From sequence record OP557969.1: 64,000 bases of DNA; one strand, 5' to 3'. Each line of letters starts with the position of its first letter. Position 1 is the stretch's first letter. Source of the stretch: Escherichia phage ph0011. Under the pieces are notes generated by a model. That model worked only from the letters and a program-made list of their open reading frames with translations, was not told where the DNA came from and made no database searches. Below are positions 3,664 through 49,881 of the stretch, piece after piece. The translations under genes and the position numbers were made by a program.

Positions 3664-4023
3664 ATGGCTAAAACAATTTCTTTAAAAAATGAAAAGGTAG
3701 GACAACGAAAAGATGGTTTCTATGGTTTTTCTTGGACTACATTATTTTTTGGACCTTTCCCTGCATTGTTTCGTGGTGACTTTATTACGTTCATCGGTGC
3801 ATTTGTAATTTACTTCATCCTCAACGCAGTGTCTTTTTGGATTGTGGGTACAATTGCAATGGTCGTGTGGGCGTTTATTTACAATAAGTACTACACGGTG
3901 AATCTCATCAAGAATGGGTATAAATTCAATGGTACACATGAAGAAAATGCTGAAGCTGCAATGGCTTTGCAAATTGATTTGAATAAAAACAACACAGTTG
4001 ATAAAAATAAAGATCCTGAGTAA
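3664..4023 (+). CDS. predicted integral membrane protein
   Basis: two long hydrophobic stretches (FFGPFPALF..., FVIYFILNAVSFWIVGTIAMVVWAFIY); SD-like AGGAGA upstream. Confidence 0.5.
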   Translation: MAKTISLKNEKVGQRKDGFYGFSWTTLFFGPFPALFRGDFITFIGAFVIYFILNAVSFWIVGTIAMVVWAFIYNKYYTVNLIKNGYKFNGTHEENAEAAMALQIDLNKNNTVDKNKDPE

Positions 4024-4242
4024 ATGGAAAAATATGATATAATTTACGATTATTACGGTAAGGCTTATATGAAGTGTGGACGTTATGTTGAACTCTCTAA
4101 TAGAGAATCAATAGATCCCCACACTCTTATAACAATTCATAACTCGTACTATAAAAAAGTTACAATAGCTAATTTCGCTACCTACGTAAATAATCCGTTA
4201 TTTCCTTACATTATTCAGTACTACTGTCGAGTTATAAAATAA
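4024..4242 (+). CDS. hypothetical protein
   Basis: ORF track; immediately follows upstream stop. Confidence 0.4.
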   Translation: MEKYDIIYDYYGKAYMKCGRYVELSNRESIDPHTLITIHNSYYKKVTIANFATYVNNPLFPYIIQYYCRVIK

Positions 4243-4253
4243 GGTAAAAAGAC

Positions 4254-4664
4254 ATGTTAGCCGATGATTTTATGTCTCTAAGTACCAAAATATTTGATAT
4301 ATTAGGGGATGAAATAGATTTTCATCTAAATGATACAACTATACCATTCGAAGATGGTGGTTATTTTTTCGCAATTGGTTATAAGTACAATGTTGATTTT
4401 TCAATTCCGGTTCCTGATGGAAGTGATTATGCAGAATCAACATATTTTGAATTTCAGTTCAGTGGGCATACTGAGCGTTTACTAACATATAGACGTAAAG
4501 GAAATTTCAGTAGGCCAGAGATCATATTAATGGATTTTGAAAAACGCATAGAACTTGCAAAGAATAATCCATTTATTAGTACTTACGCGTTAAACCAACT
4601 TATTGAACTATTTGATGGCTATCCAGACAGAATACGAGGGTCGTTACGTATAAATGCAGAATGA
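4254..4664 (+). CDS. hypothetical protein
   Basis: ORF track; ATG start. Confidence 0.45.
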   Translation: MLADDFMSLSTKIFDILGDEIDFHLNDTTIPFEDGGYFFAIGYKYNVDFSIPVPDGSDYAESTYFEFQFSGHTERLLTYRRKGNFSRPEIILMDFEKRIELAKNNPFISTYALNQLIELFDGYPDRIRGSLRINAE

Positions 4665-18796: not shown

Positions 18797-19414
18797 ATGA
18801 ACAAATATCATGTTTACTATAAGACTAATTTATCACTACTGGAAAAATTAAACCATAAAAGTACTAAGATTAAACACTACACATTAAATGGAATTACTTT
18901 TAAGTATTTTCCACAAAAAGTTCTTACATTTATTAAGAATCCAAAATGCATAGCATGTGGTATTGAAGCAACAGAAGTACGTATTGAACGTACATTTAGT
19001 TCTGACCCAATTTTCGGTAAACCACATTTAAATCTATATGCAGTATGTGGTCTTTATGAAGTTTTAATGACAGTTGACCATAATAATCTAGCATCAAAAG
19101 GTGGTCCAGATTTAGAGTCGAACTTTAATACTATGTGCTCCAGATGCAATCAACTACGTTCAAATAAAACTGAATCAGTTGATGAGTTTCTTGTGAAAGT
19201 TAAAGGTCGTAATCTTCTACAAGAACATATGAATAATTTCTTTAATGTGCAAAATGGACAAAAGAAAAATAGTATTGATAAATCAAAACTACTAGAAGAA
19301 CGTAGATTACAACAAGAATTATGGGAAACTGATCATTTATGGCATGTTCGAGAATTTGGTCGCCATATGAAAGCGTTAAAAAAAGAACAAAAGAAATTGA
19401 ACAATCACAATTAA
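18797..19414 (+). CDS. HNH-family endonuclease (free-standing, homing-endonuclease-like)
   Basis: CIACG ... VDHNNLASKGG ... CSRCNQLRSNK resembles His-Me finger HNH motif with Cys zinc ligands. Confidence 0.55.
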   Translation: MNKYHVYYKTNLSLLEKLNHKSTKIKHYTLNGITFKYFPQKVLTFIKNPKCIACGIEATEVRIERTFSSDPIFGKPHLNLYAVCGLYEVLMTVDHNNLASKGGPDLESNFNTMCSRCNQLRSNKTESVDEFLVKVKGRNLLQEHMNNFFNVQNGQKKNSIDKSKLLEERRLQQELWETDHLWHVREFGRHMKALKKEQKKLNNHN

Positions 19415-23961: not shown

Positions 23962-24289
23962 AGGACAAACTCAATATAAGTGTATTGAAGAAATAAGAAA
24001 GAAAGACGGAACACTTTTTGACAGGAAATTAAAACAAGAATATAAAGACCTAAGAGATGTTATACGAAATGAAAGTTTCGGTGGGAAGCGTAGACAGAAG
24101 ATTTATGAATTTCTGAAGAATGGTTTAGAAATTCAAGTCAATGGACTTCATTGTGTACAAACTAAAAACGATCCAGATATTTTACGTCTTTTAAAAGAGG
24201 GTAAAATAGAAATGTTCAATACCCCAATTTCATCCTATGGTAATAGATTAAAATGTAAGCACACATACTTAAGGATTAAAAATGGGTAA
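23951..24289 (+). CDS. hypothetical basic protein
   Basis: ORF track; GAGG upstream. Confidence 0.4.
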   Translation: MALRGQTQYKCIEEIRKKDGTLFDRKLKQEYKDLRDVIRNESFGGKRRQKIYEFLKNGLEIQVNGLHCVQTKNDPDILRLLKEGKIEMFNTPISSYGNRLKCKHTYLRIKNG

Positions 24290-24866
24290 ATTAGTATATT
24301 ACTATGGTAGTATGTCTAGTGGTAAAAGTACTCATCTTTTGCAAAAAGCATATAACCATAAGAAAAATGGAATGAAGGTAATTTACTTAACCAGTGCACT
24401 TGATGATCGTTATGGAACTGGAAAGATTACTTCAAGGATTGGCATCGAAGCTGAGGCTGAAGTAATTCCAAAAAATGACATTAGTGTTCTTCTTAAAGTT
24501 AAAGAAACTCTCAATAATGATGTTGACATTAACAGTATCTATGTTGATGAATGTCAATTTTTAAACAGGGAACAGATTGACCATTTAGCTGATATCGCAG
24601 ATAATTATGGTGTTGATGTTTCTTGTTATGGAATCCGAACAGATTTTGAATCCAACCTATTTGAAGGTTCACAAAGACTGTTTGAAATAGCTGATGACAT
24701 ACACGAACTTAAGAACGTGTGTGAGAATAAGAAGTGTGGTAAAGAAGCTACCATGAATGCTCGTATAGTTGAAAGTACGGAGAAAGTGTTTATTGGTGGT
24801 GACGAATCATATAAAAGCCTATGCAGAAAATGTTACAAAGACTATATGAGGAATAAAAATGGTTGA
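24282..24866 (+). CDS. tk: thymidine kinase
   Basis: P-loop YYGSMSSGKST near N-terminus and C-terminal Cys zinc ribbon (CENKKCGK ... CRKCY) typical of type II thymidine kinases. Confidence 0.9.
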   Translation: MGKLVYYYGSMSSGKSTHLLQKAYNHKKNGMKVIYLTSALDDRYGTGKITSRIGIEAEAEVIPKNDISVLLKVKETLNNDVDINSIYVDECQFLNREQIDHLADIADNYGVDVSCYGIRTDFESNLFEGSQRLFEIADDIHELKNVCENKKCGKEATMNARIVESTEKVFIGGDESYKSLCRKCYKDYMRNKNG

Positions 24867-26696: not shown

Positions 26697-27107
26697 ATGA
26701 TTGAAATGGAAGGAACTCTGGTGTATGATCCAGATCGTGGCACTATGAAAAAGAAGAAGGACTTCTGGTTAGTACTACAACTTCCGTTACAGTTGGCTAG
26801 ATACTATCAGTACTTCATTCGAACTGACTTACATATTGACATTAAAGACCCACAATGGGGGGCACATGTCAGTATCGTTCGTGGTGAAGTGCCACCAAAT
26901 CCAGAGTACTGGAAAAAGTACGATGGTAAAAAAATAAAAATACGATTTAACCCTGATATTGTCCAAGTCAAAGATAAAAAGAATCCAGGTTCGTTCTTCA
27001 TTATTGAGTTTGATGATGAATTTATTGGGAATATTCGAAAAGAATTAGGATTACATTCTAAGTATTTACGATACCACATCACTGTAGGAAGAACGTACTA
27101 CGATTAG
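26697..27107 (+). CDS. hypothetical protein
   Basis: ORF track. Confidence 0.45.
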   Translation: MIEMEGTLVYDPDRGTMKKKKDFWLVLQLPLQLARYYQYFIRTDLHIDIKDPQWGAHVSIVRGEVPPNPEYWKKYDGKKIKIRFNPDIVQVKDKKNPGSFFIIEFDDEFIGNIRKELGLHSKYLRYHITVGRTYYD

Positions 27108-27125
27108 TTTTGTAGTAAATATTTC

Positions 27126-27153
27126 TTGACATAAAACAAAAACATGCTATAAT
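27126..27153 (+). promoter_or_regulatory. sigma70-type promoter TTGACA-16nt-TATAAT with TGn extended -10
   Basis: perfect hexamers TTGACA (27126) and TATAAT (27148) with 16-nt spacer, upstream of lysozyme gene. Confidence 0.6.
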
Positions 27154-27270
27154 ACTTAAACATTTGAAAAGAACGTTTTTGTACTGTAGAAAGTCCGATG
27201 AGGCTTTTGCAAAATGGCCTCTTTGCCATCTTTGTGATTGCCCATCTTAACAATCAACAAAGGAGGCGTT

Positions 27271-28197
27271 TTGAAACAAGCGAAAAAAGCACTGAAAACT
27301 AAAATTGCCGTAGGCGTATTAGTTTCATCAGCCCTATTCGCTGCTATTGGATTTTATGGTTTTTCACGACATGATCATGCACCATCATTAGACGAAAGTC
27401 AGGTGCATAATTTGAAACCACAGTTGACTCAAATTCAAAAGCAGGAACTACCACAGGTATCAGTACCGAAAACAGTTCCAAGCAGCGAGAAACATTATAC
27501 GGTTCAACCTGGTGATAGTTATTATTCTATTGCTAAAAAGTTTAAACCTAAAAATGTACAACTTGAAGAGTATGTTATTTTGTTGAAAAATATCAATTTA
27601 AATGCTACACTTCATACTTCTCAGGGTATCTTTATCCCAACAAAAGAGGATTTGAAGAACATATTATTACCAGATGTGACTGTTCTGTTTGATTACACTG
27701 ATCCAGAAATTATCAATCACATTAAAGAAGCTGAAGGTTCAATAGAATACCAGTCCAAGAATAAACGACGTTTACTGGGTGGTCAGGTTGGTGTTTCATA
27801 TCGTAATTCTAAATTTTATCCATACCGTGATGTAAAAGGTAACTATACGATTGGGTACGGTCACTACCTTGGTAAGAATGCTTCTGATGCAAGTAAGTAC
27901 CGTAACGGAATTACCAAATCACAAGCACATAAACTTTTATTGGATGACATGGAACGAATTAATAATGATTTAATTTTATTATTGAAGAAGCGAAATGCGA
28001 CAAACCTTACGGTCGAACAACAACGAATTTTATTTGAGATGGCATTTACTCTAGGAGTTGACAAGTTAAACACTTTCAATAAACTATGGAAAAGCGTTGA
28101 AAATCAAAATTACAACAAGTTCAAAAAAGAAATTAAGAATTCTCTATGGTATCGTCAAGTAGGAAACCGTGCAGAATTGTTGTTAAGCTCACTCTAA
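27271..28197 (+). CDS. peptidoglycan hydrolase: N-terminal signal-anchor/TM + LysM + T4-lysozyme-family (GH24) domain; likely TTG start
   Basis: AGGAGG 4 nt before TTG 27271 (ORF track uses TTG 27238); Gly/Ala-rich TM IAVGVLVSSALFAAIGFYGF; LysM YTVQPGDSYYSIAKKF; lysozyme motifs NYTIGYGHYLG and SLWYRQVGNRAELL. Confidence 0.8.
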   Translation: MKQAKKALKTKIAVGVLVSSALFAAIGFYGFSRHDHAPSLDESQVHNLKPQLTQIQKQELPQVSVPKTVPSSEKHYTVQPGDSYYSIAKKFKPKNVQLEEYVILLKNINLNATLHTSQGIFIPTKEDLKNILLPDVTVLFDYTDPEIINHIKEAEGSIEYQSKNKRRLLGGQVGVSYRNSKFYPYRDVKGNYTIGYGHYLGKNASDASKYRNGITKSQAHKLLLDDMERINNDLILLLKKRNATNLTVEQQRILFEMAFTLGVDKLNTFNKLWKSVENQNYNKFKKEIKNSLWYRQVGNRAELLLSSL

Positions 28198-28213
28198 AAA
28201 AGGTAGGTAAATT

Positions 28214-28546
28214 ATGCTAAATCTAAACATTCAAGGCAACATTGATATCACTCCAGCAATCCAAGATGCTATTTACAATGAAGCAAAAAGTCTGGATAAG
28301 TACCGTACTTCTTCAGTACTAGACATTGGTGTTCATGTTAAGAAAGAGCATAAAACTCAATATGCTGTAACTTTAACTGCTGGTAGTAAATCAGTGACTG
28401 CTGATGATGCTGATTTGTATAAAGCAATTGTTGAATCTTTTGATAAGATGGAAACTGTATTCAGTAAAGACAAAAGCATTAAATTGCACCGCCGAAACCA
28501 CCCAGAACATCCAGTTCTTGATGATTTGACAGAAAACGAAGAGTAA
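28214..28546 (+). CDS. hpf: ribosome hibernation promoting factor / RaiA (YfiA)-like protein
   Basis: MLNLNIQGNIDITPAIQDAIYNEAKSLDKY ... LYKAIVESFDKMETVF follows the HPF/YfiA pattern (MQLNITG.N.EIT.AL ... LEQY ... MYAAIDGLIDKL) as recalled. Confidence 0.65.
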   Translation: MLNLNIQGNIDITPAIQDAIYNEAKSLDKYRTSSVLDIGVHVKKEHKTQYAVTLTAGSKSVTADDADLYKAIVESFDKMETVFSKDKSIKLHRRNHPEHPVLDDLTENEE

Positions 28547-28556
28547 TATATACTAA

Positions 28557-28586
28557 AGGGACAGAATTAATCTGTCCCTTTTCTTA
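28557..28586 (+). terminator. intrinsic terminator
   Basis: agggacag/ctgtccct 8-bp stem, 7-nt loop, T-rich tail. Confidence 0.7.
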
Positions 28587-28599
28587 TGGAGTTTTAATT

Positions 28600-28995
28600 A
28601 TGAATTGTTCCTGGATGGAAATTGTAAAATCTCTAATATCAACACATGATATGGACTTACCTGAACACCTAGTTATTAATAGATGGTTCTATCCATATCC
28701 AGATAACCGTTGTGTTGGAATTGGATTTTTTATTAATGAAAAATCTCAATATATTGTATTAATTGAAGATTATACAAAAACCAATATTGCGTTCTCAATT
28801 GAGTTGAATGTAGATCACATAAAATACTACACCAATAAAATGGATGAAGACGATGGTGATGTTATAATTCCAGCAGAAATAGACGAAGCTTCATTTTTTC
28901 AGTTATCATTAATTCATAATGTATCTGATATTACTTATGATAATGTGAAAGACCTTTTTATATTGTACAATAAACTGTATAATTACTTTATATGA
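28600..28995 (+). CDS. hypothetical protein
   Basis: ORF track. Confidence 0.45.
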   Translation: MNCSWMEIVKSLISTHDMDLPEHLVINRWFYPYPDNRCVGIGFFINEKSQYIVLIEDYTKTNIAFSIELNVDHIKYYTNKMDEDDGDVIIPAEIDEASFFQLSLIHNVSDITYDNVKDLFILYNKLYNYFI

Positions 28996-30644: not shown

Positions 30645-31757
30645 ATGAAAAAGTATTTGGTTGGAGGTTATACGAGAGATCGTTTAATGGGCATCCGTGC
30701 AAAAGACAAAGATTATGTCATTGTTGGTGCAACTGAATCCGATATTAAGTACTTGCAAAGTATTGGTTATAAGCAAGTAGGCAAGGACTTCCCTGTGTAC
30801 TTGAGTCCAGAGGGTAATGAACACGCATTGGCTCGTACCGAGCGTAAGACTGGTACTGGATATGGTGGTTTCGAAGTGAATACAAAAGGTGTGACACTAG
30901 AACAAGATCTATATCGTCGTGATCTCACAATCAATAGTATTGCTTATGATCCAGTACTCCAGATTCACATCGACCCTTATGGTGGGAAAGCTGATATCAA
31001 GAACAAAGTACTTCGTCATGTATCAGAACACTTTAAAGAAGATCCATTGCGTGTTCTACGTTTGGCCCGTTTCGCTACACGTTATTCAGACTTTTCTATC
31101 CATGAAAGTACAGAGGAACTTGCTATTAGTATGGTCAATAGTGGTGAATTAGATCATCTTGTCCCAGACCGTGTTTTTGTTGAATTTGAAAAAGCACTTT
31201 CTGAAGAAAAACCATCTAAATTCCTCAAAACCCTAAGTAAATTTGGTTATTATGAGAAAGTTTTCAAAACATCTCTAACTAAAAAGAATTTAGACATAAT
31301 TGATTATATTTCTGATAACTGCACGGATGTATATAAACCATATTTCTTGTGGGCAGTACTTCTTGAAAATGAAGAAGTAGATAATAATTCTGTTCTAAAT
31401 GGTGCTATTAAAGTACCAGTAAAGTATGTAAAATTTAGTAATTACATCAAACGTTTTTCTGATGATATCAAAACCTTCCGAAAAAAGACCCCAGATGAAA
31501 TGGGTAATATTTTAATGGAAATGAATATCAAAAACAACGGAGGTGAAGGATTCCTTTATAAAGTATTGGAGTATTTCATTTTACGAAAAGAAATCGATTT
31601 AGAACATGAAGACCTGATTGTTAAAGTATATGACAGATATACTGATGTAGTATTACCTGATATTCAGCAACTGGTGAAAGACGGTGAACTTGAAACATCA
31701 GAAATTCGTGATTTTGTTTGTGGGCTACGTTACGAAGCAATTAAACAATTATTCTAA
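30645..31757 (+). CDS. cca: tRNA nucleotidyltransferase (CCA-adding enzyme / poly(A) polymerase family)
   Basis: MKKYLVGGYTRDRLMG ... GYKQVGKDFPVYL ... ALARTERK ... RRDLTINSIAYD matches class II nucleotidyltransferase head domain as recalled from E. coli Cca. Confidence 0.85.
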   Translation: MKKYLVGGYTRDRLMGIRAKDKDYVIVGATESDIKYLQSIGYKQVGKDFPVYLSPEGNEHALARTERKTGTGYGGFEVNTKGVTLEQDLYRRDLTINSIAYDPVLQIHIDPYGGKADIKNKVLRHVSEHFKEDPLRVLRLARFATRYSDFSIHESTEELAISMVNSGELDHLVPDRVFVEFEKALSEEKPSKFLKTLSKFGYYEKVFKTSLTKKNLDIIDYISDNCTDVYKPYFLWAVLLENEEVDNNSVLNGAIKVPVKYVKFSNYIKRFSDDIKTFRKKTPDEMGNILMEMNIKNNGGEGFLYKVLEYFILRKEIDLEHEDLIVKVYDRYTDVVLPDIQQLVKDGELETSEIRDFVCGLRYEAIKQLF

Positions 31758-31867
31758 AAAAATCGGGACAAAAAACCAATAACTGATATAATTATTAGTA
31801 TCTGAACATCGATTGATGACAAAGAGATAAGATATGCGTTATAGTTGTGGAATAATATTTTATCGTG

Positions 31868-32266
31868 ATGGGCAGATACTTATCGGGCATACAACACGGA
31901 CAGAATCATTGGGATTTACCTAAAGGGAAAGCTGAGGGTAATGAAACATTTAAAGAAGCTGCTGTCCGTGAGTGCTACGAAGAGACAGGATACGAAATTG
32001 ATGAAGATGATCTTTTGTTTCTTGGTGATGTTTCCTATAGAAAGGGAAAAAGGCTAGTACTTTTCTTTTATACTGCCAAAGACAAACCTGTACCTGAAGA
32101 ATTAGTTTGTAAAAGTACTTACACTAACAGATACGGTAAGAGTCATCCAGAATTGGATAAGTTCATGTACATTGATGTACGAGAATGTCAAAAGTATTTG
32201 ACTGAACGAATGTGTAACAGTATTATTAAAGCTGTTAAAGCTTTTCAAAGAAATAGAAGGAAATAA
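31868..32266 (+). CDS. Nudix hydrolase (apparent +1 frameshift relative to a 29-codon upstream ORF that encodes the expected N-terminal beta strands)
   Basis: Nudix box GKAEGNETFKEAAVRECYEETGY (Gx5Ex7REUxEExGU); WDLPKG upstream; N-terminal segment MRYSCGIIFYRDGQILIGHTT is in frame 31834..31923. Confidence 0.7.
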   Translation: MGRYLSGIQHGQNHWDLPKGKAEGNETFKEAAVRECYEETGYEIDEDDLLFLGDVSYRKGKRLVLFFYTAKDKPVPEELVCKSTYTNRYGKSHPELDKFMYIDVRECQKYLTERMCNSIIKAVKAFQRNRRK

Positions 32267-33095: not shown

Positions 33096-33572
33096 ATGAT
33101 TCATGAACACAGAGGTAATCTGTTTGAATTATTCAGTACTGTAACAGATGATAATTCAGCATTACATATAATTGCTCATGGTTGTAACGCACAAGGTAAA
33201 ATGGGTTCAGGTTTTGCAAAAGAACTAAGAAATCGCTATCCAATGGCATATGATGATTATAAAGCATATGAAAAGGAAATGGGATTTCTAAGAACTGGGC
33301 AAATTTCATATTCTTTGGTAAGCAATGATTTGATTATTGCAAATTGTATTACGCAACAGTACTATGGCAATGATGGTAAAAAATATGTAAGTTATGATGC
33401 AGTTGACGATGTTTTTAAACAACTCAATTACTTATGTAATGTTGAACGAAGTATTCATGTGCACTTTCCGAAAATTGGAGCCGATTTGGGTGGTGGTAAC
33501 TGGAACGTTATCAAAGAAATCATTGATCATCGTTTGGTTAATGCAGAAAAACATTTATATATTCTAAAATAA
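33096..33572 (+). CDS. macro-domain (ADP-ribose-binding/processing) protein
   Basis: IIAHGCNAQGKMGSGFA ... FPKIGADLGGGNW pattern typical of macro/Appr-1-p processing domains. Confidence 0.55.
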   Translation: MIHEHRGNLFELFSTVTDDNSALHIIAHGCNAQGKMGSGFAKELRNRYPMAYDDYKAYEKEMGFLRTGQISYSLVSNDLIIANCITQQYYGNDGKKYVSYDAVDDVFKQLNYLCNVERSIHVHFPKIGADLGGGNWNVIKEIIDHRLVNAEKHLYILK

Positions 33573-49634: not shown

Positions 49635-49881
49635 TTGACAAGTTGAAAATGATGTGATATAATAAACATCACAATGAAAGTTTTCAAGTTTCACATGATG
49701 TGAGATTGAAAAAAAGAAAAAATAGTTGACGAGTTGAAATGATGTGATATAATGTTCACATCAAGACAACAAAGAGATTTACCTTTTAAACACACGGATG
49801 ATTCATGAAGTAACAAAGGAACTGATAAGTTAAAATATTTTAACACAGTTCCTTTACTTTTGCACACGGATTGGCTATAAT
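49635..49881 (+). promoter_or_regulatory. tandem promoter/leader region: P1 TTGACA-17-TATAAT (49635/49658), P2 TTGACG-16-TATAAT (49726/49748), P3 -10 TATAAT (49876); inverted repeats overlap the -10 elements
   Basis: consensus hexamers with TGa extended -10; GATGTGA/TCACATC inverted repeat flanks P2 -10; CACACGGAT repeated at 49792 and 49863. Confidence 0.6.
49815..49862 (+). terminator. leader hairpin/attenuator candidate between P2 and P3
   Basis: 10-bp stem aaaggaactg/cagttccttt with 21-nt loop, then acttttg. Confidence 0.4.

Follow-up and report, generated by a model that had tools for sequence, protein, structure and literature searches.

A gene of 110 amino acids (aa) in Escherichia phage ph0011 encodes a genuine member of the HPF/RaiA (Ribosomal_S30AE) fold family of ribosome hibernation factors. 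We analyzed a 64,000-nucleotide (nt) stretch of this genome (record OP557969.1; hereafter the window), in which the gene lies on the + strand at 28214–28546, closely behind a lysozyme gene. Sequence profiles and a predicted structure place the product in the family, and comparison of its orthologues identifies an old, vertically inherited accessory gene that is under purifying selection in a clade of ~350-kb enterobacterial jumbo phages. We propose with moderate confidence, our doubts being about as heavy as our reasons, that the product acts as a RaiA-like factor that would bind idle host ribosomes and keep a usable pool of them for the phage.

The presence of the gene and its HPF/RaiA annotation are already known. 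Mizuno et al. (2019, PMC6375957) described HPF genes from cultivated phages, among them the related jumbo phage GAP32 and members of the rV5-like group, and suggested that a viral HPF could act as a competitor of the host factor and keep ribosomes from dimerizing. In the Sharanji genome paper (PMC11895373), the gene is grouped with the translation factors. Our search of the literature for experiments on jumbo-phage HPFs returned only the genome-description mentions for Sharanji and Mizuno et al. 2019, with nothing experimental of later date, and the papers on phages UE-S1, phAPEC6 and fEgEco12 do not discuss the gene. Three modest observations may be new: a lysozyme/HPF module that is syntenic across genera, a conserved RaiA-like acidic tail, and a lineage-specific loss of R83 and of the basic residues of helix alpha1.

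Family membership, relatives and selection

Profile searches place the protein in the S30AE family well above chance. The initial annotation had described a 110-aa protein following the HPF/YfiA pattern along its length; the open reading frame (ORF) is present, and its translation holds all of the strings quoted in that description. Pfam PF02482 (Ribosomal_S30AE), the profile suggested there as a check, gives 41.4 bits (E = 2.5e-10) against a curated gathering score of 23.7, with residues 5–87 aligned to profile positions 2–84 of 88, so that a significant hidden Markov model match exists. A phmmer search against PDB sequences retrieves hibernation factors (HPF, RaiA and pY) exclusively down to E~0.2, headed by the Thermus HPF 6gzx (E = 3.5e-7). 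Within PHROGs, the protein matches phrog_34864 (208 bits), a family that carries no annotation, and more weakly phrog_8990, which is named “sigma 54 modulation protein/ribosomal protein S30EA”. Sigma-factor similarity is absent from the Pfam and NCBIfam results for the protein. We discarded a resemblance to dodecin, a sub-threshold overlap on the same beta-alpha-beta region (Pfam 19.5 bits, cut-off 22.5; NCBIfam 13 versus 75 bits).

The predicted structure leads to the same family. An AlphaFold2 model computed from 14 family members, which is a prediction and not a solved structure, has a mean predicted local distance difference test score (pLDDT) of 77.5, with values of 74–90 across residues 1–90. 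It comprises a strand (residues 2–8), a helix (14–30), three further strands (36–46, 49–56 and 59–65) and a second helix (68–85). When this model was compared with the PDB by Foldseek, the first 36 matches were all HPF, RaiA or pY, many of them chains from ribosome complexes, and they included the long HPF of Listeria (8uu4, E = 1.2e-7). Core motifs of the family are present as well, namely I-T-x-A-I/L in alpha1 and D-x-Y-x-A-I at the opening of alpha2; residues T13, A15, I16, D67, Y69, A71 and I72 are invariant in the phage family and align with E. coli HPF and RaiA. The match is one of fold and core motifs, and several of the usually conserved basic rRNA-contact residues are replaced in this lineage.

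Orthologues are widespread among large enterobacterial phages. The region matches 121Q/PBECO4-type jumbo coliphages of ~350 kb (genus Asteriusvirus), and the GC content of the gene (0.354) and its GC content at third codon positions (0.25) are those of the adjacent phage genes. Eleven records encode a 99.1%-identical protein, and intact orthologues of 107–110 aa occur in >30 genomes. Searched against 1.84 billion representatives, the family profile recovered its own cluster through one representative only. Next in score come proteins of 103–116 aa (49–67 bits), of which those with the longest contigs lie on contigs of 258–351 kb; these relatives correspond to Salmonella phages Munch, 7t3 and SE_PL and Klebsiella phage fENko-Kae01. 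Erwinia phage Hallingskeid carries a 47%-identical copy, and the product of g181 in Yersinia phage fHe-Yen9-04 (locus 3694–4041), a hypothetical protein by its annotation, belongs to the S30AE family (56.7 bits) and is encoded directly behind a LysM-lysozyme gene. The GAP32 protein was not retrieved by tblastn with three family members and was matched by predicted structure only, at 20% identity. A scan of IMG/VR with the jumbo-phage family profile yielded two loci only, 121Q and one 366-kb contig. From the search of the representatives, we treated as spurious a 1605-aa sequence (P0015) made of ~29 tandem copies of a ~53-aa unit, whose 132 bits are the sum of weak matches to profile positions 45–81; it probably arose from assembly or repeat errors and has no relation to HPF.

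Gene order is conserved across genera along with the gene itself. In Munch, Hallingskeid and fHe-Yen9-04, a LysM-lysozyme gene is followed by the HPF-like gene, a terminator, small ORFs, a CCA-adding enzyme and a NUDIX hydrolase, with one extra gene between lysozyme and HPF-like gene in Munch. Among seven Asteriusvirus orthologues, pairwise ratios of nonsynonymous to synonymous substitution rates (dN/dS) are 0.12–0.27 at dS 0.5–1.8, alike in core and tail (tail 0.14–0.24), and the ratio falls to 0.04 (dS 0.11) for the window and UE-S1, the two most closely related. These data show long-standing vertical inheritance under purifying selection, and recent capture from E. coli is not the origin of the gene.

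A second set of phage HPFs forms an independent lineage. E. coli HPF matches 130 phage records, among them those of rV5-like phages (Vequintavirinae), whose 105-aa HPF is likewise an S30AE protein of a large coliphage annotated as RaiA or HPF. The rV5-like protein is ~43% identical to E. coli HPF, and the rV5-like and jumbo-phage lineages do not retrieve each other. Furthermore, R83 and K26 are retained in it, and its Gly/Lys tail is basic, whereas that of the jumbo-phage protein is acidic.

Names in sequence records vary for the Asteriusvirus orthologues. “HPF/RaiA family ribosome-associated protein” is the RefSeq name for those of 121Q and PBECO4 (~82% identical) and the GenBank name for that of UE-S1 (99.1%); other records use “ribosome-associated inhibitor A” or “ribosome hibernation promoting factor”. 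In 121Q (gp533), Ecwhy_1, UB and A4, orthologues are labelled “putative sigma 54”, “putative sigma” or “putative sigma factor”. These labels are misleading, being clipped forms of “sigma 54 modulation protein”, the name that the family used to carry.

Acidic tail, contact surface and proposed role

The protein has the layout of the RaiA subtype, one S30AE domain followed by a 15-residue tail. E. coli RaiA (YfiA, protein Y; 113 aa) shares with it the fold, a similar length, the single domain and the lack of a dimerization domain, and the ends are comparable: ARR and 17 residues ending in EEVEEE in RaiA, RR and 16 residues with the tip DLTENEE in the phage protein. However, the two are only 25% identical, and the phage protein has neither the gammaproteobacterial RaiA signatures W/Y-Q-T and S-K-E-P nor equivalents of R17, R23, K26 and R83. 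Because it is not a RaiA orthologue, the likeness of the tails may be ancestral to the short forms or convergent. Its best match among host proteins is E. coli short HPF (YhbH; 95 aa), which works with RMF (27% identity, E = 3e-7); the two share the fold and K80, K87 and K89, but short HPF stops straight behind alpha2 and has no tail. The N-terminal domain of the long HPFs of Firmicutes and Thermus (~185 aa) provides the best sequence and structure matches. In those proteins a C-terminal dimerization domain (~60 aa, after a linker) drives 100S formation; the phage protein, which ends at residue 110, has no second Pfam domain and lacks this one.

The acidic tail is conserved well beyond the genus. 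It runs past alpha2 and a short helix, is predicted to be disordered (AlphaFold2 pLDDT <50 for residues 99–110) and has an isoelectric point of 4.2. Within the genus, KSIKLHRRNHPxxPVxxDLTEDEE is the conserved C-terminal sequence, and the acidic tip, D-L-T-E-D/N-E-E, is kept across genera: DLTEDNE in Hallingskeid, DLTESDE in Munch and NDEEIEE in fHe-Yen9-04, in proteins with 20–47% overall identity, as well as in metagenomic relatives (P0016–P0019 and P0021). Since 17 of the 45 short family members sampled also have an acidic C terminus, the tail is a family-wide architecture and no invention of phages. The tail of RaiA is flexible and extends in the direction of the RMF site, and it is believed to keep RMF from binding and thereby to prevent 100S formation (PMC10502375; bioRxiv 10.1101/2025.10.07.680626). 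We found no RMF homologue in 50,697 phage records (tblastn, E ≤ 1), a search whose sensitivity is limited by the short query. With no dimerization domain and no detectable phage RMF, formation of 100S dimers by the phage protein alone is not expected.

From homology, fold, selection and architecture, we infer ribosome binding, its site and its consequence as follows. The protein would bind the 30S decoding region (A/P-site channel) of non-translating host ribosomes, as RaiA/protein Y does, and would not by itself dimerize them into 100S particles. Idle host ribosomes would be held as protected monomeric 70S, and/or host HPF and RMF would be competed out; the tail, similar to that of RaiA in length and acidity, would work against RMF/HPF-dependent 100S formation. 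A slow jumbo-phage infection of stationary or slowly growing cells would then still find a pool of ribosomes that it can use.

The putative contact surface is partly retained. We aligned 14 Asteriusvirus sequences, 7 other jumbo-phage sequences and 57 cellular-type proteins, the latter picked by similarity to the phage profile and carrying no annotation, and numbered positions after E. coli HPF. Residues K29, D69, Y71, K80, K87 and K89 are invariant in the Asteriusvirus family. Conserved ribosome-contacting basic residues common to HPF and YfiA are K80, R83, K87 and K91, and the beta2-beta3 loop also contacts the ribosome in HPF structures (bioRxiv 10.1101/2025.10.07.680626). The six invariant residues, two of which (K80 and K87) are among these named contacts, are consistent with ribosome binding. 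In the beta2-beta3 hairpin, the phage family has an invariant basic segment, HVKKEHK (residues 41–47 of the phage protein), perhaps in compensation for basic residues lost elsewhere.

Several observations weigh against a RaiA-like, ribosome-binding role. At the level of orthology, the protein misses the NCBIfam equivalog cut-offs for yfiA (TIGR00741, 36.3 versus 40.9 bits), HPF (NF007780, 22.5 versus 125 bits) and RaiA (NF007654, 19.5 versus 158 bits), which makes it a divergent family member and the orthologue of neither host protein. On the contact surface, R17 is replaced by H, Q or N, K23 by E and K26 by variable non-basic residues; K91 is I or V, with a K at the following position; and R83, described as an essential arginine that touches m4C1402 (bioRxiv 10.1101/2025.10.07.680626), is T in 12 of the 14 Asteriusvirus sequences. 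Asteriusvirus proteins have one or two K/R residues in helix alpha1, whereas the median is four in the cellular-type proteins, of which 2/57 have two or fewer. In the one published experiment on a phage HPF, that of rV5, the protein was produced in E. coli; it was missing from high-salt-washed 70S and 100S particles and left the 100S level unchanged (PMC6375957). Finally, the gene is not universal among relatives. Phage RaK2 has no HPF-like gene at the syntenic site, where an unrelated 150-aa ORF (ORF030, locus 4028–4480) indicates that it was lost or replaced, and Salmonella phages SD-15_S21, SD-2_S15, SD-1_S14 and SD-6_S16 (310–326 kb) carry internally deleted or truncated copies, such as a 74-aa product (P0014) without residues ~22–58. 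Together, the RaK2 absence and the SD-phage truncations imply that the gene is dispensable in some relatives; in the SD-phage lineage it is therefore dispensable or decaying, unless these copies are assembly artefacts.

The SD-phage copies, along with the sigma names in the 121Q, Ecwhy_1, UB and A4 records, could be taken to mean that the gene is a decaying remnant or encodes a sigma-54-related regulator. We consider this explanation essentially refuted: the names are a clipped family name with no sigma-factor similarity behind them, and the low dN/dS, the intact orthologues in >30 genomes and the conserved Shine-Dalgarno sequence and terminator (below) are those of a maintained gene.

A more serious alternative is that the HPF fold was exapted, having lost canonical ribosome binding, and that fold and acidic tail now serve another partner, for instance by titrating a host factor such as RMF or a ribosome-targeting defence toxin, or by binding a different RNA. 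The loss of basic residues and the negative result for rV5 HPF oblige us to take it seriously, although we consider it rather improbable. Four to five of the usual basic rRNA-contact positions are gone, R83 among them, and alpha1 is net negative. Other jumbo-phage S30AE proteins (Munch, 7t3, SE_PL, fENko-Kae01, Hallingskeid, fHe-Yen9-04 g181 and GAP32; 104–115 aa, 20–47% identical to Asteriusvirus) keep K26, in some cases also R17, and score 54–62 bits with Pfam versus 41 for Asteriusvirus, the lowest among these versions; the Asteriusvirus branch is the most derived of them. New family-specific invariants, HVKKEHK and the acidic tip, are moreover under purifying selection. Against exaptation, contact residues differ considerably among bona fide RaiA and HPF proteins (PMC13122176), and K80, K87 and K89 and the ribosome-touching beta2-beta3 loop are invariant in the phage family. 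Net charge of the core, which we dropped as a discriminator, is -1 in E. coli HPF itself. No search pointed to another partner, and PADLOC gave no defence or anti-defence match for the protein or the five adjacent ORFs.

The same substitutions could also have re-tuned a RaiA-like protein into an anti-hibernation factor. Because alpha1 has lost basic residues and R83 has become T, binding would be weak and reversible in this case; the acidic tail would keep RMF off the 30S subunit, and 100S formation would be prevented or reversed. We consider this more specific version unlikely.

Proposed transcription unit and neighboring genes

The HPF-like gene closes what we interpret as a two-gene unit with the upstream lysozyme gene (Table 1), putatively transcribed by host RNA polymerase and with the HPF-like gene translated from its own Shine-Dalgarno sequence. 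The initial annotation had placed the gene immediately after a lysozyme gene, with its own Shine-Dalgarno sequence and a strong terminator, and all three elements are found. The Phage_lysozyme/LysM gene stops 16 nt upstream; AAGGTAGGT lies 6 nt ahead of the ATG and is conserved as AAGGWAGGT at orthologous loci; and the gene is followed by a hairpin with stem GGGACAGA (28558–28565) and TCTGTCCC (28571–28578), loop ATTAA and the run TTTTCTT. Asteriusvirus, Hallingskeid and Munch all have a hairpin at this position, with stems that differ in sequence through compensatory changes, and the equivalent element is annotated as a terminator in the UE-S1 and Munch records.

Table 1. Positions of the HPF-like gene, its parts and the associated transcription and translation signals in the window
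Feature	Position	Strand	Basis
HPF/RaiA-family (Ribosomal_S30AE) gene, 110 aa, ATG start	28214..28546	+	ORF, Pfam, PDB phmmer, AlphaFold2, Foldseek
S30AE core portion of HPF-like gene	28214..28498	+	AlphaFold2 pLDDT, Foldseek PDB matches
C-terminal tail, residues 96–110 (HPEHPVLDDLTENEE), predicted disordered, acidic tip	28499..28543	+	AlphaFold2, alignment
Sigma-70-type promoter-like site, TTGACA-16 nt-TATAAT, extended -10 TG	27126..27153	+	Consensus match 12/12
Conserved structured 5' leader of lysozyme gene, ~110 nt	27160..27270	+	Conservation in Asteriusvirus, RNA fold
LysM + T4-type lysozyme gene, 308 aa, TTG start	27271..28197	+	Phage_lysozyme 40.9 bits, LysM 21.5 bits
Shine-Dalgarno sequence of HPF-like gene, AAGGTAGGT	28200..28208	+	Read from sequence
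Intrinsic terminator closing lysozyme/HPF unit	28555..28585	+	Hairpin + T-rich run

A promoter-like site upstream of the lysozyme gene suggests that the unit may be transcribed by unmodified host RNA polymerase, early in infection. It has the form TTGACA-16 nt-TGCTATAAT, and conservation among Asteriusvirus relatives covers the -35 element and TGCTATAAT/TGCTATACT. Perfect sigma-70 consensus sites number two in the 64-kb window against 0.17 expected, the other one being at 49635–49663 (+).

Between this site and the lysozyme gene lies a conserved leader that may exert translational control on lysozyme. Its predicted RNA fold has a free energy of -33.7 kcal/mol (z = -3.2), and in the RNAalifold consensus GCCATCTTTGT pairs with ACAAAGGAGGC, which would sequester the lysozyme Shine-Dalgarno sequence; one compensatory pair only supports this pairing. 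The leader also contains the invariant TGTAGAAAGTCC and the hairpin GAGGCU..GGCCUC. We rejected TGTAGAAAGTCC as a recurring phage promoter, as its six matches within two mismatches are at chance level (5.6 expected), and an Rfam scan of 26900–28800 gave nothing meaningful and no leader family. The lysozyme start in the table is the TTG whose equivalent is annotated in relatives and which has GGAGG 4 nt ahead of it (27262–27266); we rejected the in-frame TTG at 27238, which the mechanical ORF list uses (319 aa).

This arrangement bears on a further explanation, that the protein is a translation shut-off factor. Protein Y-like binding would then inhibit initiation, either to shut off the host or to close translation at the end of infection, without preserving ribosomes. 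The HPF/RaiA fold and the retained basic patch of alpha2 would suit such a role, and the neighboring lysozyme gene could mean late expression. The sigma-70-consensus promoter, however, suggests early and not late transcription, and a general A/P-site blocker would hit phage translation too. Nearby genes for tRNA repair and supply, such as the CCA-adding enzyme, likewise argue for sustained translation. In phAPEC6, one of two predicted lysozymes, gp293, a possible orthologue of the lysozyme encoded here, was undetected in virions; the text on that virion proteome mentions no ribosome-related protein. On balance we regard a shut-off function as distinctly unlikely.

Genes around the unit suggest a putative neighborhood of RNA/tRNA repair and nucleotide metabolism. 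Downstream are the CCA-adding enzyme (30645–31757), a NUDIX hydrolase (31865–32266) and a weak macro-domain ORF (33096–33572). Upstream, a 136-aa ORF (26697–27107, +) has a sub-threshold match to the “2H-SAK” 2H phosphoesterase family (24.4 versus 27 bits), and Hallingskeid has an RNA ligase at the equivalent place. Farther upstream are an ORF with an HNH endonuclease domain (18797–19414, +) and a thymidine kinase gene (24282–24866, +).

Implications for large-phage replication

How bacteria come through starvation and stress is governed by ribosome hibernation, and slow or arrested growth is the usual state of bacteria in nature. If a phage factor can lock host ribosomes, protect them or wake them again, this would matter for the replication of large phages in slow- or non-growing cells and for phage therapy aimed at dormant, tolerant populations. 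The jumbo-phage lineage described here is a good test case, as it is conserved across several genera and combines a RaiA-like tail with a visibly altered rRNA-contact surface. It is also tractable: the hosts are E. coli K-12-type strains, and raiA, hpf and rmf mutants and structural methods for ribosomes are routine. Should the protein prove to be an anti-hibernation factor, it would give a slow phage of 350 kb access to the dormant ribosomes of stationary-phase gut E. coli, and for the first time a viral factor would have been shown to work against ribosome hibernation.

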